A DNA stretch of 64,000 nt, taken from contig OZ244999.1 of NCBI GenBank assembly GCA_965223265.1, positions 3,776,001 through 3,840,000 of the forward strand. The letters run 5' to 3'. The notes beneath the pieces were generated by a model. The model did no database searches and had not been told where the DNA came from. It saw nothing but the letters and a program-made list of their open reading frames with translations. Source of the DNA: Planctomycetota bacterium. GTDB lineage: Bacteria; Planctomycetota; UBA8108; SXIK01. The position numbers and the translations under genes are program-made. Below, one piece after another: positions 1-4,351 of the stretch (position 1 is its first letter; each line of letters starts with the position of its first letter).

Positions 1-212
1 TGGAAGACCTTGCCGCGAAACGGACGCACAATGCCAAGGAGCGCGCTGACCAAAGTCGACTTTCCAGCACCGTTGGGCCCCACCACGGCCCAAAACTCGC
101 CACGAGAAACTTCCATGCTCACGGATTCGAGTACCGCTTTACGGCCATAGCCGAGAGATACTCCGTTGAGTCTAACAAGCCACTCCTGGTCTGGAACTTC
201 CGAAAGCTTCAA
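1..212 (-). CDS. znuC: Metal ABC transporter ATP-binding protein (ZnuC/MntA-like), 5' part; runs off window start
   Basis: Manual translation from TTG at 212 (overlapping the upstream TGA): MKLSEVPDQEWLVRLNGVSLGYGRKAVLESVSMEVSRGEFWAVVGPNGAGKSTL, with Walker A GPNGAGKST; directly follows the ZnuA-like gene. Confidence 0.85.
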   Translation of the reverse strand, partial: MKLSEVPDQEWLVRLNGVSLGYGRKAVLESVSMEVSRGEFWAVVGPNGAGKSTLVSALLGIVRPFRGKVF

Positions 213-1291
213 GGCTCCCCCCCGAGCCGACTCTTCTCCAGCGCATTGACCAGTTGGCGTACGTTGTAGTCGAACACACCTACGTACCCGTCAGCGCCTT
301 TTCGAGAGCCTGACTGGTGTGCCATCTCTACTACAGAGGTGCCCGCGTGGTGCGCCACGAATTCCGCGTGGCGCGGGTTGAAGTACGCGCAAGAGAGAAC
401 GGCCGCGACCTTCTGCTCACGCGCGCCCCTAATGACTTGGCCCAGGTGACGTGTCGTCGGAGTGAGTCCAGGCTTGGGTTCAAGGAAGGCGACGACTTCA
501 AGCCCGAACCGCCCCGTCAAGTAAGGCCATGTGTCGTGGTCAGCTACGCAGCGGGTCCCGTAGTACGGCCATAGAGCGCCGACCCAGCCCCCCAGAAGGT
601 CCTTCTGTTTTTCCTTCTCGAGAAAGTTGACGAACCGCGCTACGCCTCCACGCTCCAAAAGCTTCAAGAGTTTCGGTACGTCTTCTCGTTTGTACTTGTT
701 GACCAATTCCTTCCCGAATAGCGATTCCGCGACTCGGGTGCGAAACGCATCGAGGCGCTCAGCAAAGGCTTCTCTTTTTTCTGGGCGCAGATCCGAGAAG
801 CGCTTCGCCAGGAGCGTCGCGACTCGCAGTCCGTTCAGCGGGTCGAGCAGATAGTGCGGGTTACCGTGACCGTGAACGTCGCCCATTGCTCGACTGACCG
901 GTGTCTTCGGAACGGCGAGCGGTTGGACGGCTCGAGAGGCGTCGACATACCCTTCCCCCCCGGGACGCACCCTGGGATTTCGAGCTGTTCTTAGCAGTTG
1001 AGGAGCCCAGCCCACTTCCAGTTCGAGTCCGATCGCGACAAAGACGTCCGCGTTGTGGATCGAACGGACGAAACTGGGTCGTGCCACGATCGTGTGCGGG
1101 TCCTGCGGACCTTTCGTGAGGACCGTGACCTGTACATCGTTGCCTCCTACAATTCTCGCGAGGTCCCCAAGATCGGGGACCGTAGCGCACACTGCAAGTT
1201 TCGCCTCTTCAGCCTGCGAGGTACCGGAGAACAGCACCGTGAACAGAGCCAGCAGAGCGAGTCGGGTCTGATTTGTGTTACTCCGTCTCAT
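209..1291 (-). CDS. znuA: Metal ABC transporter substrate-binding protein (ZnuA/TroA family; Zn/Mn/Ni/Co)
   Basis: Signal peptide; QDPH, GLELE, DVHGHGNPHYLLDP, HDTWPY and EPKPG motifs typical of cluster A-I metal-binding proteins. Confidence 0.92.
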   Translation of the reverse strand: MRRSNTNQTRLALLALFTVLFSGTSQAEEAKLAVCATVPDLGDLARIVGGNDVQVTVLTKGPQDPHTIVARPSFVRSIHNADVFVAIGLELEVGWAPQLLRTARNPRVRPGGEGYVDASRAVQPLAVPKTPVSRAMGDVHGHGNPHYLLDPLNGLRVATLLAKRFSDLRPEKREAFAERLDAFRTRVAESLFGKELVNKYKREDVPKLLKLLERGGVARFVNFLEKEKQKDLLGGWVGALWPYYGTRCVADHDTWPYLTGRFGLEVVAFLEPKPGLTPTTRHLGQVIRGAREQKVAAVLSCAYFNPRHAEFVAHHAGTSVVEMAHQSGSRKGADGYVGVFDYNVRQLVNALEKSRLGGEP

Positions 1292-1309: not shown

Positions 1310-2716
1310 TCACATCGAGTGAGCTGGGTGCTTTCCGATCAACACTTCGAAGCCAAGCCATACCGAGTGAGCGTCATCCGCAAGGTGATCGGCCTGATCG
1401 AAGTTGTATTGCAGTCGCACGCGAGAGAAGTGAGTTGGCGTCCAAACAATCACGGGCGAGAGACGTTGGCGCTCGTCGCGAAACGGGTCCATGCTGCGCC
1501 CGCCGACGCTCGGTCCATCGCCCGAAACGAATTCGTAGCGCAGACCCGCCGACCAGTCTCTCAAAAATCCCCAGAGAAGTTGTGTGTACAGCCCCCAATC
1601 TCCGAGATCTTCTCCAGGGAGATCAGTGGCCTGGCCGTCGATTTTGTAATCTCGACGCATGATCTCGGATTGCCATGAGACGAACGGCCAACCCCGGTCG
1701 TTGTCGATAGGTTGCCACTTGAGTAAGAAATCCCCTCCGTAGATGACCGTGCGGCCTCCGGAGCCACTGGCGTTGGGACCGACAAGCCCGGAGAGCCCGA
1801 CAGAGGTCGACACCTCATCCGAGACGTCCCACGCGTTCTCCCAACGGCCGAGCCACACAAGGTCTCCAAGGCTCCGAACATCCTGGTCCTGGAATTCAAT
1901 CCCACCGACGGCGCGATCTTCGAAGAATTCGTCGCTTGCCAGGAAGCTGGCCATGGTCTCTCCGTTGGCGTTCTGCAAACCGAAATGGAACTGAGAGAAC
2001 CAGGGCAGGGGAGTCAGCCAGCCAATCCGCGCACCTGGCCCCCGCATCCCGTCAGGGCCAAAGACTCGCGAATTGATCACGGGTTGGTCAAGCCAATCCC
2101 AGGCGTGGGGGTGCCGCGGATTAATTCTCCCAAACTCCGTGAACATCTGCCCGATTTCGAGTTCGAGCCCGTACTCTTCAAGTCCGAATGGAAGCTGCTG
2201 CGTCGTCAGAAATGCTTCCTCGAGTTCCAAGACCGATTCGCCCTCGATTGGGTCGATGAAGTAGATCAGGTGCGCTTCGGCAGTGAAGAAGGGGTCTACA
2301 GCTCCGAGGAGTGAGAGCTCGAGATTCTGTAGCGTGAACCCTCGTTTGCGCGGGTCGTGACCGCCACCTTGCAGAGACCCAAGCGAGGAGTCTCGTTCCG
2401 TCGAGCTGCCGACGGCGAACAGCAAATCAACAGAAAGGTCAGTGAGTCGAAAGGTCACCGGGCCTGACTGGTAGCGCGCAATGTCGTCAGACGCGGACGG
2501 GAGGCTCTGAAGAGCACGGTCGAGAGACGAATCGCTTTGGTCAAGCTCATCGTCGAAAGAGTTCTCTTCCAGTCGGTTCAATTCAAGGTCGATGTTCGAA
2601 GGGCTGGGTTGCTCCTGCGCGTCGGCTGTGGTCGATGGTGACGGTACAAAAACCGTCGCCACCGCCCACGCCACGACGACTACGGAACGCCCTTCGATGG
2701 CATTCATGCGCATCAT
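1310..2716 (-). CDS. Putative outer-membrane beta-barrel associated with zinc uptake
   Basis: Signal peptide, alternating beta-strand pattern, FGRINPRHPHAWDW motif, C-terminal GKHPAH; co-oriented with and 18 bp upstream of znuA. Confidence 0.75.
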   Translation of the reverse strand: MMRMNAIEGRSVVVVAWAVATVFVPSPSTTADAQEQPSPSNIDLELNRLEENSFDDELDQSDSSLDRALQSLPSASDDIARYQSGPVTFRLTDLSVDLLFAVGSSTERDSSLGSLQGGGHDPRKRGFTLQNLELSLLGAVDPFFTAEAHLIYFIDPIEGESVLELEEAFLTTQQLPFGLEEYGLELEIGQMFTEFGRINPRHPHAWDWLDQPVINSRVFGPDGMRGPGARIGWLTPLPWFSQFHFGLQNANGETMASFLASDEFFEDRAVGGIEFQDQDVRSLGDLVWLGRWENAWDVSDEVSTSVGLSGLVGPNASGSGGRTVIYGGDFLLKWQPIDNDRGWPFVSWQSEIMRRDYKIDGQATDLPGEDLGDWGLYTQLLWGFLRDWSAGLRYEFVSGDGPSVGGRSMDPFRDERQRLSPVIVWTPTHFSRVRLQYNFDQADHLADDAHSVWLGFEVLIGKHPAHSM

Positions 2717-2814
2717 GGCGGCTCCAATAGGTTCGCTGTCGGACGACGTTCAGCAACTGAACAGGCCCGGAATGAGGAAGTTAGCCACGCTCTAAGCGCA
2801 GCGAGAACAACTCG

Positions 2815-3186
2815 TCAGCAAACCGGTGGAGCGCGCGGCGTACCGATGCTCAGGTCGATACGCCGGACGAGGAGAACGGAAACCGCGCGGCAGCACGTGA
2901 GGTCCGAGAGCCCAAAGTGTGGGGCGATGAACGCGGCGATGATTCCATAAGACGACGAGCTCTCTAGTGCCTTGCAGACTGGGCATGCGGATTGGCCGTG
3001 GTCATGGTCATGGCCATGGACCGGGGCGCCAGCGACCACCGATTGGTTGCAGCTGCCGCAGCTACCGTCGTGTGGACCGTGCGCCAACGGCACGAGTGTG
3101 CTCGCAACAAACCCAACGAGCGCCAAGAGGCGCACGACGAGAGGAAATCGGCTCTGATGCTCTGTAGACTGCGACACGGTAGCCAA
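2815..3186 (-). CDS. DUF2946/CruR-like metal-sensing leader protein ending in RAPP (start uncertain: TTG 3186 or GTG 3177)
   Basis: Hydrophobic N-terminal segment ending LAH, CGSC, HGHDHDH, CPVC and C-terminal PRAPP-VC*; first gene of the metal-uptake operon. Confidence 0.75.
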   Translation of the reverse strand: MATVSQSTEHQSRFPLVVRLLALVGFVASTLVPLAHGPHDGSCGSCNQSVVAGAPVHGHDHDHGQSACPVCKALESSSSYGIIAAFIAPHFGLSDLTCCRAVSVLLVRRIDLSIGTPRAPPVC

Positions 3187-3539
3187 GAGGATAGCAGATT
3201 CTGAACGAAAGTCGAAGGTCCTCCCTGGATTTGACGGGCGCAGATAAAACTTGTTGAACTGAGTCGCTGCGCGTCGGGAGGGGCGACCGAAAGCGCTTTG
3301 TGGGCAGTTCGGTAGCCACGGCCAAACTCAAGCACAAGGCGGTCGAGTGAAAGCTTTACGCCGCCGGGCTGCGGACGGCGAGAAACTCTGCAGTCTCGGC
3401 ACCCAAACTGACGTCGACAGCGACAGAATGGCCGTCCACATCCAGCAACGGACGGGCGGAAGTCGCGTTGTGCGATGCTGTCCGATCGCACTCATCGTGA
3501 ATCGGAGGCCAGACCGTTCGCTCTATCGCCCCCTCGGCT

Positions 3540-3653
3540 TCAGTCGGAAGTCAGAGCTCTCCAAACGACAACGCCAAGGAACACCACGGCCAAGAGGATG
3601 GCGAGCACGCCCAGTACGATGAGCACGAGTTCAACGGGACCTGGGATGAACAT
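3540..3653 (-). CDS. 37-aa single-transmembrane microprotein with TatA-like N-terminus
   Basis: Manual translation MFIPGPVELVLIVLGVLAILLAVVFLGVVVWRALTSD*; GAAGGTG SD-like sequence before the ATG; below the ORF-track cutoff. Confidence 0.6.
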   Translation of the reverse strand: MFIPGPVELVLIVLGVLAILLAVVFLGVVVWRALTSD

Positions 3654-3752
3654 GTGGCACCTTCAGACTCTGCGGTTGCCAACAATCAACAGAGCGGATG
3701 CGGTGCTTCCGATGTCTTCCTGCAGAGAAGTCGTCTGAAGTGGGAGTCATTT

Positions 3753-4139
3753 TCATTCGCTTGCGGAATTCACGCTCGCCGCGCTCAGATGCTCGGCGAG
3801 CAGCATCCAAGCGCCGCTCTCTCGCACCAGGACGCCTGTACCTCTCCCGGACCCGCTCGCCGGGCGCTCATCAATCCGTCCGCTCCATGTGAAATCGAAC
3901 GTGTAGACCGCGATCGGCTCATCTCGTCGAATCCAGTGCAGGTTCAACATCCGGTATGTATCCCCCTGAATCGACGCGAAGTTGCGCTCGAACGCTTGCC
4001 GCACTGCCTCCTTGCCGCGGTGAACAGCTCCGGTGGAAAACGTCACGCACGCGTCCGCATGGACCAGAGGCTCAACCTGCTGCCAATCCTGCGCCTCTAA
4101 GGCGGCTGCATAGGCGCAAAGGAAGTCGTCGGGACTCAC
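3753..4139 (-). CDS. NTF2-like/SnoaL-like (DUF4440) protein
   Basis: AYAAALEAQDW...HRGKEAVRQAFE...GRGTGVLVRESGAWMLLAEHLS pattern; GTG 4139 taken as start. Confidence 0.8.
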   Translation of the reverse strand: MSPDDFLCAYAAALEAQDWQQVEPLVHADACVTFSTGAVHRGKEAVRQAFERNFASIQGDTYRMLNLHWIRRDEPIAVYTFDFTWSGRIDERPASGSGRGTGVLVRESGAWMLLAEHLSAASVNSASE

Positions 4140-4351
4140 GGTCCGCCGATCCCCAACGCTGACCTGTCGACTGAGATGACGACGTCGCTCTTCATTGCAC
4201 CATACTCCCACAGCGGTCAGGCCGAGTTCTTGAAAAAAGCTGAGAAAGTCTGAAACTTGAACTCAACGCGCTGGACTGTACTAAGAAGGCGCACTTGCTG
4301 CGCCTCCTGCACGTATCGCAACCGCCATCGCTCTCAAAAAGGGGGGATCCC

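Follow-up and report, generated by a model that had tools for sequence, protein, structure and literature searches.

A candidate metal-sensing ribosome-arrest leader of divergent DUF2946 type at the head of a planctomycete porin-ZnuABC operon

The leader and the operon it heads

We analyzed a stretch of 64,000 nucleotides (the window) from the genome of a Planctomycetota bacterium (assembly GCA_965223265.1, contig OZ244999.1, positions 3,776,001 to 3,840,000 of the forward strand), near the beginning of which a small open reading frame (ORF), here called the leader, precedes the genes of an outer-membrane barrel and of a zinc-type ATP-binding cassette (ABC) importer (Table 1). A preliminary description of this DNA had given the ORF a hydrophobic segment, the motifs CGSC, HGHDHDH and CPVC, and a PRAPP-VC-stop end that lies 98 nt before the barrel gene, and all of these details are correct. 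On balance, we think it likely that the leader is a divergent, metal-sensing ribosome-arrest peptide of the DUF2946 family that heads a porin-ZnuABC operon, with the arrest unmasking the ribosome-binding site (RBS) of the barrel gene and metal relieving the arrest. Zinc uptake, judging from the sequence, would thus probably be controlled here during translation.

The leader opens with a polar stretch (an alternative in-frame start, GTG, lies at 3177) that runs into a hydrophobic segment with a maximum hydropathy of 2.31 over a 15-residue window. In an AlphaFold2 model, this segment was the sole confident element, with a predicted local distance difference test score (pLDDT) of about 89-94; the model overall reached a pLDDT of 61.8 and a predicted template modeling score (pTM) of 0.29, with low confidence everywhere beyond the anchor helix. 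The gap between CPVC and RAPP is 46 residues, RAPP lies two residues before the end, and arrest presumably occurs when the P site holds the codon CCA (2827-2829) and the A site the codon CCG.

Table 1. Coordinates of the leader, its motifs, the predicted RNA helix and the downstream genes in the window.
Feature	Position	Strand	Remarks
Leader ORF	2815..3186	minus	123 codons; start TTG 3186; end GTPRAPPVC-TGA
N-terminal hydrophobic helix (signal-anchor or export segment), residues 14-35	3082..3147	minus	AlphaFold2 and hydropathy
His36 in PLAHGP, right after the helix	3079-3081	minus	invariant in 19 aligned leaders
CGSC, N-proximal CxxC, residues 43-46	3049..3060	minus	not conserved
His tract HGHDHDH, residues 57-63	2998..3018	minus	precedes the conserved CxxC
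CPVC, residues 68-71	2974..2985	minus	conserved CxxC; presumed metal ligands
RAPP, residues 118-121	2824..2835	minus	codons CGC GCT CCA CCG; presumed arrest site
V, C and TGA stop, end of the leader	2815-2817 (stop)	minus	
Helix 5' strand (anti-Shine-Dalgarno)	2816..2836	minus	fold and duplex energy
Helix 3' strand	2718..2738	minus	holds GGAG (2722-2725), 5 nt before ATG 2716
Spacer between leader and barrel gene, 98 nt	2717..2814	minus	two internal hairpins, no U-tract terminator
Porin-like outer-membrane barrel, 468 aa	1310..2716 (ATG 2716)	minus	large family, no Pfam model
ZnuA-type periplasmic metal-binding protein, 360 aa	209..1291	minus	PF01297, E 4e-41
ABC ATPase start (ZnuC-like)	1..212 (coding span 3-212)	minus	runs past the window edge

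The leader is a real feature and not a chance ORF, because its composite pattern is unique in the genome and because it has conserved homologues. Chance would have some purchase here, since long spurious ORFs are frequent in this G+C-rich DNA and a spurious Arg-rich ORF with RAPP was present at one of the loci surveyed below (L036), but the explanation is refuted by several lines of evidence. The pattern C..C-[41-47 aa]-R[AG]PP-[0-8 aa]-stop matched once, at the leader itself, among the 18,358,988 codons in the six frames of the 9.18-Mb genome, whereas R[AG]PP alone matched 1889 times; a looser form of the composite pattern had one match in the 64-kb window. The G+C content by codon position (0.653/0.528/0.707) has the same coding-like profile as that of the barrel gene (0.646/0.44/0.669), and the position ahead of a barrel gene recurs across phyla. 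A HMMER search of 1.84 billion representative proteins returned three homologues (P0001, E 2e-47; P0002, 4e-16; P0003, 1.5e-15) and no others, and a word-indexed protein search returned one. A single-protein search in the genomes of 41 relatives recovered the leader's own copy and one weak match with an internal stop, a metagenome scan recovered one locus (L132, 48% identity, with the same GTPRAPPVC end), and a profile of the four sequences had no match in the genome contigs.

Aligned with its three homologues, the leader shares the invariant blocks PLAH.P, VV, GHD..H, CP.C and a C-terminal DLS.G.PRAPP.C, with an identical CP.C-RAPP spacing in all four sequences. The N-proximal CGSC, to which the preliminary description had drawn attention as a second CxxC, proves not to be conserved: it is replaced by RGGSS in the closest homologue, P0001, and an extra upstream CxxC appears in just 9 of the 47 leader rows compiled below.

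The genes downstream lie on the same strand in the order porin, ZnuA, ZnuC and ZnuB, an order that is repeated in two other genomes (G369 and G056); past the window edge, the whole ATPase (ABC_tran, 3e-29) is followed by an ABC-3 permease (PF00950, 1e-25). The barrel protein matched no Pfam family, Plug and TonB_dep_Rec included, and a search at E<=1e-20 gave at least 1785 homologues, almost all without a name and a few labelled 'TonB-dependent receptor'. Its AlphaFold2 model, built from 24 sequences (pLDDT 73.4, pTM 0.71), is an all-beta barrel that resembles porins of 16-18 strands, and Foldseek placed OprP and OprO first (E 1e-10), followed by OmpT, chitoporin and OmpC. Because these best structural matches are porins, the model points to a plug-less porin and not to a TonB receptor. 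We had considered a TonB-dependent receptor, which would have a plug, 22 strands and roughly 700 aa or more, and rejected it in view of the length of 468 aa, the missing plug and the porin-like matches. The family had no solved relative by sequence. Many of its invariant or near-invariant residues are histidines or acidic residues, as in GGGHDPRKRGF, NP.HPHAW.WLDQP and a C-terminal G.HPAH.

The best solved relative of the periplasmic protein was Synechocystis ZnuA (E 6e-15), with whose motifs DPH, DPH and FH the motifs DPH, NPH and HD of the window protein align; the histidines of the latter three we take to be the three zinc ligands. Going by these sequences, the operon appears to encode an importer of the ZnuABC type (cluster A-I / ABC-3), for which the label 'zinc-type' is well founded; the metal itself is not proven, since none of the operon proteins reached an NCBIfam equivalog cut-off.

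Conservation of the leader at barrel loci

Of the 401 genomes sampled from the phylum, 121 contained the barrel protein, and we surveyed its best 30 loci, that of the window included, for an ORF on the same strand and just upstream of the barrel gene that follows the pattern CxxC, 41-47 residues, R[AG]PP, 2-20 residues, stop. Such a leader stood upstream of the barrel at 14 of these 30 Planctomycetota loci, and in all six frames of the loci (246,970 codons), the pattern matched 15 times, with 14 of the matches being the leaders. The lone other match, at L035, lies on the strand opposite to the barrel gene near oriented position 3189 and may be a chance occurrence or the leader of another operon. 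A wider scan of species genomes yielded 468 barrel relatives, among whose best 80 loci a leader was found at 35, in many phyla, and a ZnuA homologue downstream of the barrel at 73; the taxa covered Planctomycetota, Deltaproteobacteria/Desulfobacterota, Geobacteraceae, Myxococcota, Methylomirabilota, Spirochaetales, Entotheonellaceae and others.

About nine further loci of the 80 carried a RAPP-ending ORF with a single Cys, for example in the form CP[IV]HFW in Methylomirabilota. ORFs with a single Cys and RAPP or RGPP were seen at L063, L069, L070, L072, L074 and L120 (Methylomirabilota), L061 (Acidobacteriota) and L090 (Omnitrophota). By their sequence, those of the CP[IV]HFW type appear to provide a different form of the sensor site at this place in the operon.

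Taken together, the leaders filled 47 rows, corresponding to 45 distinct sequences. The spacing from CxxC to R[AG]PP was 41-47 residues in 45 of these rows, a hydrophobic segment was present in 44, the tail after the stall motif was at most three residues long in 38, and 36 rows had at least two His among the 15 residues that precede the CxxC; the stall motif read RAPP in 33 rows and RGPP in 14. Among 19 leaders that could be aligned, the mean column identity was 21%, and only His36, Cys68, Cys71, Arg118, Pro120 and Pro121 were invariant. This restriction of the invariant residues to six argues for the pattern of a sensor-plus-arrest peptide and not for that of a folded protein, with which the low-confidence fold agrees. 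RAPP or RGPP, on whose conservation the preliminary description had made its proposal depend, is invariant in the four close homologues and in the 19 aligned leaders and recurs upstream of the barrels counted above, and the motif is thus conserved in homologous loci. At one leader (L050, 926-1345 on the plus strand, genome G242), two stall motifs stand in tandem, ...RAPPARGPPTIA-stop, at 41 and 46 residues past the CxxC.

Relation to DUF2946

Against Pfam and NCBIfam, the leader protein gave no meaningful family. The comparison with the hidden Markov model of DUF2946 (PF11162) that the preliminary description had suggested did not succeed with the leader itself, and the homology was instead reached via its relatives, hhalign and ESM-Atlas. 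Searching the 401 genomes of the phylum with a profile of the four homologues led to leader-like ORFs in other families, three of which scored 26.3, 24.2 and 21.7 bits against DUF2946, the first two being above the PF11162 gathering threshold of 23.7 bits and all three matching up to the end of the model. One further leader, found by its position, also exceeded the cut-off (25.1 bits), and ten leaders stayed below it, each with DUF2946 among its matches and with the match ending at the last position of the model (117/117). When the four-member family of the leader was compared by hhalign with six leaders, all planctomycete, whose Pfam E-value for DUF2946 is <1e-3 and three of which exceed the cut-off, the alignment covered 76 columns with a probability of 95.6% and an E-value of 1.2e-8. 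The nearest ESM-Atlas clusters of the leader were likewise DUF2946 (score 0.97; 190/256 features).

In the published description of the family, more than 95% of DUF2946 members have an N-terminal signal peptide or an N-in/C-out membrane segment, the defining features are a CxxC and a RAPP three residues from the end with 45 residues (plus or minus one or two) between them, and the leaders form the first gene of a metal operon and are followed by a long spacer (PMC9426467). The leader displays each of these traits, namely the export segment, the CxxC, the C-terminal RAPP, the spacing, the first position in a metal operon and the long spacer. The mark of the class that monitors Sec and YidC, a position upstream of secA, secDF or yidC, is absent at this locus, where the downstream genes are those of the porin and ZnuABC. 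Profile homology and architecture together therefore suggest that the leader is a divergent member of DUF2946 (CruR/CutF) that falls below the Pfam threshold.

Predicted pairing of the leader end with the barrel Shine-Dalgarno

Folding of 161 nt of the minus strand (2850-2690) predicted, in the minimum free energy (MFE) and the centroid structures alike, an interrupted 18-bp helix in which the codons from RAPP to the stop pair with the Shine-Dalgarno (SD) sequence of the barrel gene. The 5' strand of the helix starts on the third base of the Pro117 codon (2836) and continues through the codons of R118, A119 and P120, one base of P121, the codons of V122 and C123 and two bases of the stop. We then compared the duplex between the leader tail and positions -20..+3 of the barrel gene with the duplexes formed by recoded tails, in which the peptide was kept and synonymous codons were drawn from local usage. 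The natural duplex has an energy of -26.0 kcal/mol as compared to -12.7 +/- 3.1 for the synonymous recodings, none of 2000 of which reached -26.0; in a repeat, one of 1000 or none did so (p 0.001).

Across 44 distinct leader-barrel loci, for which the barrel start codons had been chosen partly by their SD, the same test gave p<0.05 at 13 and p<0.1 at 18. Combined, the 44 loci yielded a Fisher p of 1e-7 and a Kolmogorov-Smirnov p of 3e-6, values that overstate the evidence because kin loci are not independent. Masking of the SD is strongly supported in this window, and in the family it is recurrent and not universal. When CCA occupies the P site, the 5' strand extends from about -7 to +13 relative to that codon and lies inside the ribosome footprint, such that an arrested ribosome would keep the SD free.

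Other candidate regulators

The preliminary description had noted no Zur or Fur gene in the vicinity, an observation that extends to the whole genome: no Fur-family gene (PF01475, E<=0.001) was found in its single contig, which is 91.65% complete by markers, nor in eight other sampled genomes of the order (G001, G002, G004-G006, G008, G010 and G011), all nine being at least 90% complete. By contrast, 352 of the 401 genomes of the phylum sample contain such a gene, and the lineage apparently lacks Fur, Zur and PerR. This absence fits a need for another zinc sensor and does not prove it. A general anticorrelation between the leader and Fur-family genes was considered and rejected, as most genomes with a leader (e.g., G274, G395, G389 and G369) also carry Fur-family genes. 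At a leaderless locus (L031, genome G328), a Fur-family gene (621-1016, plus strand) lies directly upstream of the barrel, which suggests that one kind of control may stand in for the other.

A known riboswitch was also rejected, since an Rfam search of 2500-3900 returned nothing at threshold and its only sub-threshold match, chrB-b, was on the other strand (E 0.041). The promoter scan revealed no promoter-like site, the 566-nt gap upstream of the leader (3187-3752) included. The terminator scan gave two terminator-like sites against 1.2 expected, neither of them in the spacer. The search for inverted repeats upstream of the leader found one 10-nt pair (3775-3800), which lies inside the upstream gene, and we propose no operator box. 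That upstream gene, at 3753-4211 on the minus strand, is SnoaL-like. A GGGAGGA at 3219-3225 precedes the TTG start by about 33 nt, which is too great a distance for it to serve that start.

Discussion

We propose the following sequence of events. The N-terminal helix would target the nascent chain to the membrane, and upon reaching R-A-P/P, two codons before the end, the ribosome would stall in peptide-bond formation. It would then cover the whole 5' strand of the 18-bp helix, freeing the SD and the start codon of the porin gene, so that the importer is made. Metal, most likely zinc, would bind to His36, to the His tract and to CPVC at a point when these are some 47-50 residues away from the peptidyl-transferase center, whereupon the chain would fold or be pulled and the arrest would be released. 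The ribosome would terminate three codons on, the helix would re-form, and the operon would be switched off. The arrest, the identity of the metal, and a metal that relieves rather than strengthens the arrest are elements that we infer. The leader of this proposal would combine the polarity of CruR (importer on when metal is scarce) with the output of CutF (unmasking of an RBS), with zinc as the presumed metal. The suggestion in the preliminary description of a CruR-like CxxC and RAPP leader on a barrel-ZnuA-ZnuC importer accordingly finds support in homology, conservation and operon context, as far as these can be read from sequence.

CruR (Bp2923) of Bordetella pertussis, the prototype of DUF2946, is reported to keep a copper importer on through its arrest, which copper relieves (PMC9426467). 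The CruR arrest is described as RAPP-dependent, with a toeprint that places the P site as for ApdA and ApdP, and RAPP is described as a motif that arrests bacterial ribosomes and is refractory to elongation factor P (EF-P) (PMC12992588). Like CruR, the leader is the small first gene of a metal-uptake operon, with an export segment, and a long spacer separates it from the gene of an outer-membrane uptake protein. The gap from CxxC to RAPP is 45 residues in CruR and 46 here, with three and two residues, respectively, between RAPP and the stop. Since both control importers, metal should switch both off. CruR, however, senses copper and acts on a TonB-dependent transporter through Rho-dependent termination, whereas here a plug-less porin is joined to a three-His ZnuA/ABC-3 importer. 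Also unlike CruR, the leader has arrest codons that mask the next SD and a His tract before the CxxC, falls below the Pfam threshold and belongs to a host of the Planctomycetota.

In CutF, the DUF2946 leader of Rhodobacter capsulatus, the stall melts a stem-loop that hides the RBS of the next gene, and does so in cis only (PMC9973294; bioRxiv 10.1101/2025.02.05.636593), which is analogous to the RBS unmasking that we propose. CutF differs in that copper switches it on and in that its target is a detoxifying multicopper oxidase and not an importer; its stall is EF-P sensitive and does not depend on a strict RAPP, the motif present here. ApdA, ApdP, ApcA and SecM are described as small exported or membrane proteins with a C-terminal RAPP or RAGP, encoded upstream of the gene that they regulate (PMC7897499, PMC10951233, PMC10987492). 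In the SecM-secA pair, as reported, the stalled ribosome opens a masked SD, as it would here. These peptides are reported to monitor Sec or YidC and to lie upstream of protein-localization genes, whereas the leader has metal ligands and precedes metal-uptake genes. A physical precedent for release is given by an ADR1a-SecM fusion, in which Zn-dependent folding of a His2Cys2 domain releases the SecM arrest in vitro, half-maximally near 1 uM Zn (PMC4571824). The release of a RAGP-type arrest by folding force is the principle that we propose for the leader. The fusion is engineered, with a tether of 24-26 residues, and folds inside the tunnel, whereas the ligands of the leader, about 47-65 residues from the stall, would be outside the tunnel or at the translocon.

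Several observations weigh against the proposal of a DUF2946-type leader that controls zinc uptake by unmasking an RBS. Zinc is read from the operon alone, and both CruR and CutF sense copper. The leader protein had no match to PF11162 at E<=1, and nothing in its genome exceeded the cut-off of that family (best 15.6 bits, elsewhere). Leader ORFs were not found at 16 of the 30 barrel loci, nor at about 35 of the 80 loci of the wider scan, several of which have too little upstream DNA to judge; their absence from many barrel loci implies that the leader is dispensable for this operon type. Regarding the RNA, the whole 161-nt fold beats shuffled sequences modestly (z -2.08, with 7 of 200 shuffles folding equally well), tail-SD pairing had p>=0.05 at 31 of the 44 loci, and at L132, the nearest relative with DNA, the tail-SD duplex had a p of 0.21, although the MFE structure of that locus does pair the R-A codons with the start-codon region. 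Pro-Pro codons are, moreover, inherently anti-SD-like. Finally, the genome has a gene for Rho, through which CruR acts.

These last points bear on the alternative that, as in CruR, the arrest acts mainly on transcription: the stalled ribosome would block Rho in the 98-nt spacer, metal-released ribosomes would permit Rho-dependent termination before the porin gene, and the SD helix would be secondary. Such a mechanism has been shown for CruR, the closest characterized importer leader, and besides the Rho gene and the many loci with nonsignificant tail-SD pairing, it can draw on a spacer that lacks an intrinsic terminator and shows some enrichment in C (30 C, 27 G, 15 A, 26 T). Yet the spacer is largely paired in the predicted fold and has nearly as much G as C, unlike a typical rut site, and the superiority of the window helix over essentially all synonymous recodings is hard to explain without SD masking. 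We therefore consider a mainly transcriptional output unlikely, and note that the two outputs could coexist. The polarity could also be that of CutF, such that metal induces or strengthens the stall and turns the operon on. CutF indeed stalls upon binding Cu and thereby opens a masked RBS, and the RNA architecture of the leader is nearer to that of CutF than to that of CruR. The controlled genes, however, serve uptake (a porin, a three-His ZnuA-type protein and an ABC-3 permease), for which induction by the substrate would be maladaptive, and CruR, which also controls an importer, is relieved by metal, which makes a CutF-like polarity quite improbable in our estimate.

We think it very unlikely that the leader is instead a small, stable protein that binds metal in the membrane or periplasm, such as a chaperone or accessory protein, and whose RAPP has no regulatory part. 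With its anchor helix, its Cys and His ligands and a length of 123 aa that exceeds that of many leaders, it could pass for such a protein, but the invariant positions across 19 homologues are confined to the six motif residues, and beyond the anchor helix, no confident fold was predicted. A fixed CxxC-RAPP spacing and a tail of one to three residues would have no rationale in a folded protein. According to a survey of such motifs, RAPP and RGPP are strongly avoided in bacterial proteomes except near the C-terminal end of small proteins, secreted or membrane-bound, that are encoded upstream of regulated genes (PMC12992588).

For the preferred reading of an arrest leader that unmasks the porin RBS, the kind of regulator is known, and the sequence comparisons give good computational support to the leader as belonging to a zinc-operon branch within the CruR/CutF leaders. 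Reports on DUF2946 leaders date from 2022-2025, with 'a few' mentioned in Planctomycetes (PMC9426467), and some members that have His only have been linked to Ni/Co genes. RAPP/RGPP upstream ORFs (uORFs) have been surveyed ahead of genes for TonB receptors, YcnI, PCuAC and PepSY, and the supplementary list of that survey includes RAPP uORFs before genes annotated as zinc-regulated receptors (PMC12992588). In their main texts, the papers on CruR and on CutF (2023) and the 2025 RAPP survey make no mention of zinc, ZnuA or ABC transporters, although their supplementary tables may list the association, and in the literature that we searched, we found no description of a zinc-responsive ribosome-arrest peptide.

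Bacterial zinc uptake is textbook territory of the Zur repressor. If our proposal is true, the principle of CruR and CutF would apply to zinc as well as to copper and would reach beyond Pseudomonadota to Planctomycetota, Desulfobacterota, Myxococcota, Methylomirabilota and others, the engineered zinc-finger/SecM force sensor would have a natural counterpart, and a large unnamed porin family would gain a function. The leader, with its 123 codons, six invariant residues and 18-bp helix, would moreover offer a clean test system. More tentatively, and with doubts that exceed our confidence, we raise the idea that a zinc-sensing nascent peptide may be the principal regulator of zinc uptake in this order, in which no Fur or Zur was found, and may be widespread across phyla together with the porin-ZnuABC operon.

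Similar leaders also occur outside of metal operons. In one genome (G089, locus L008), a DUF2946-like leader (1483-1830, plus strand) ends in PRAPPHA and lies 74 nt upstream of a gene (1905-2579, plus strand) for a pilin-like DUF1559/N_methyl protein, with no metal gene downstream, and the supplement of the RAPP survey reports the pairing of a leader with a pilin-like gene as an enriched class (PMC12992588).

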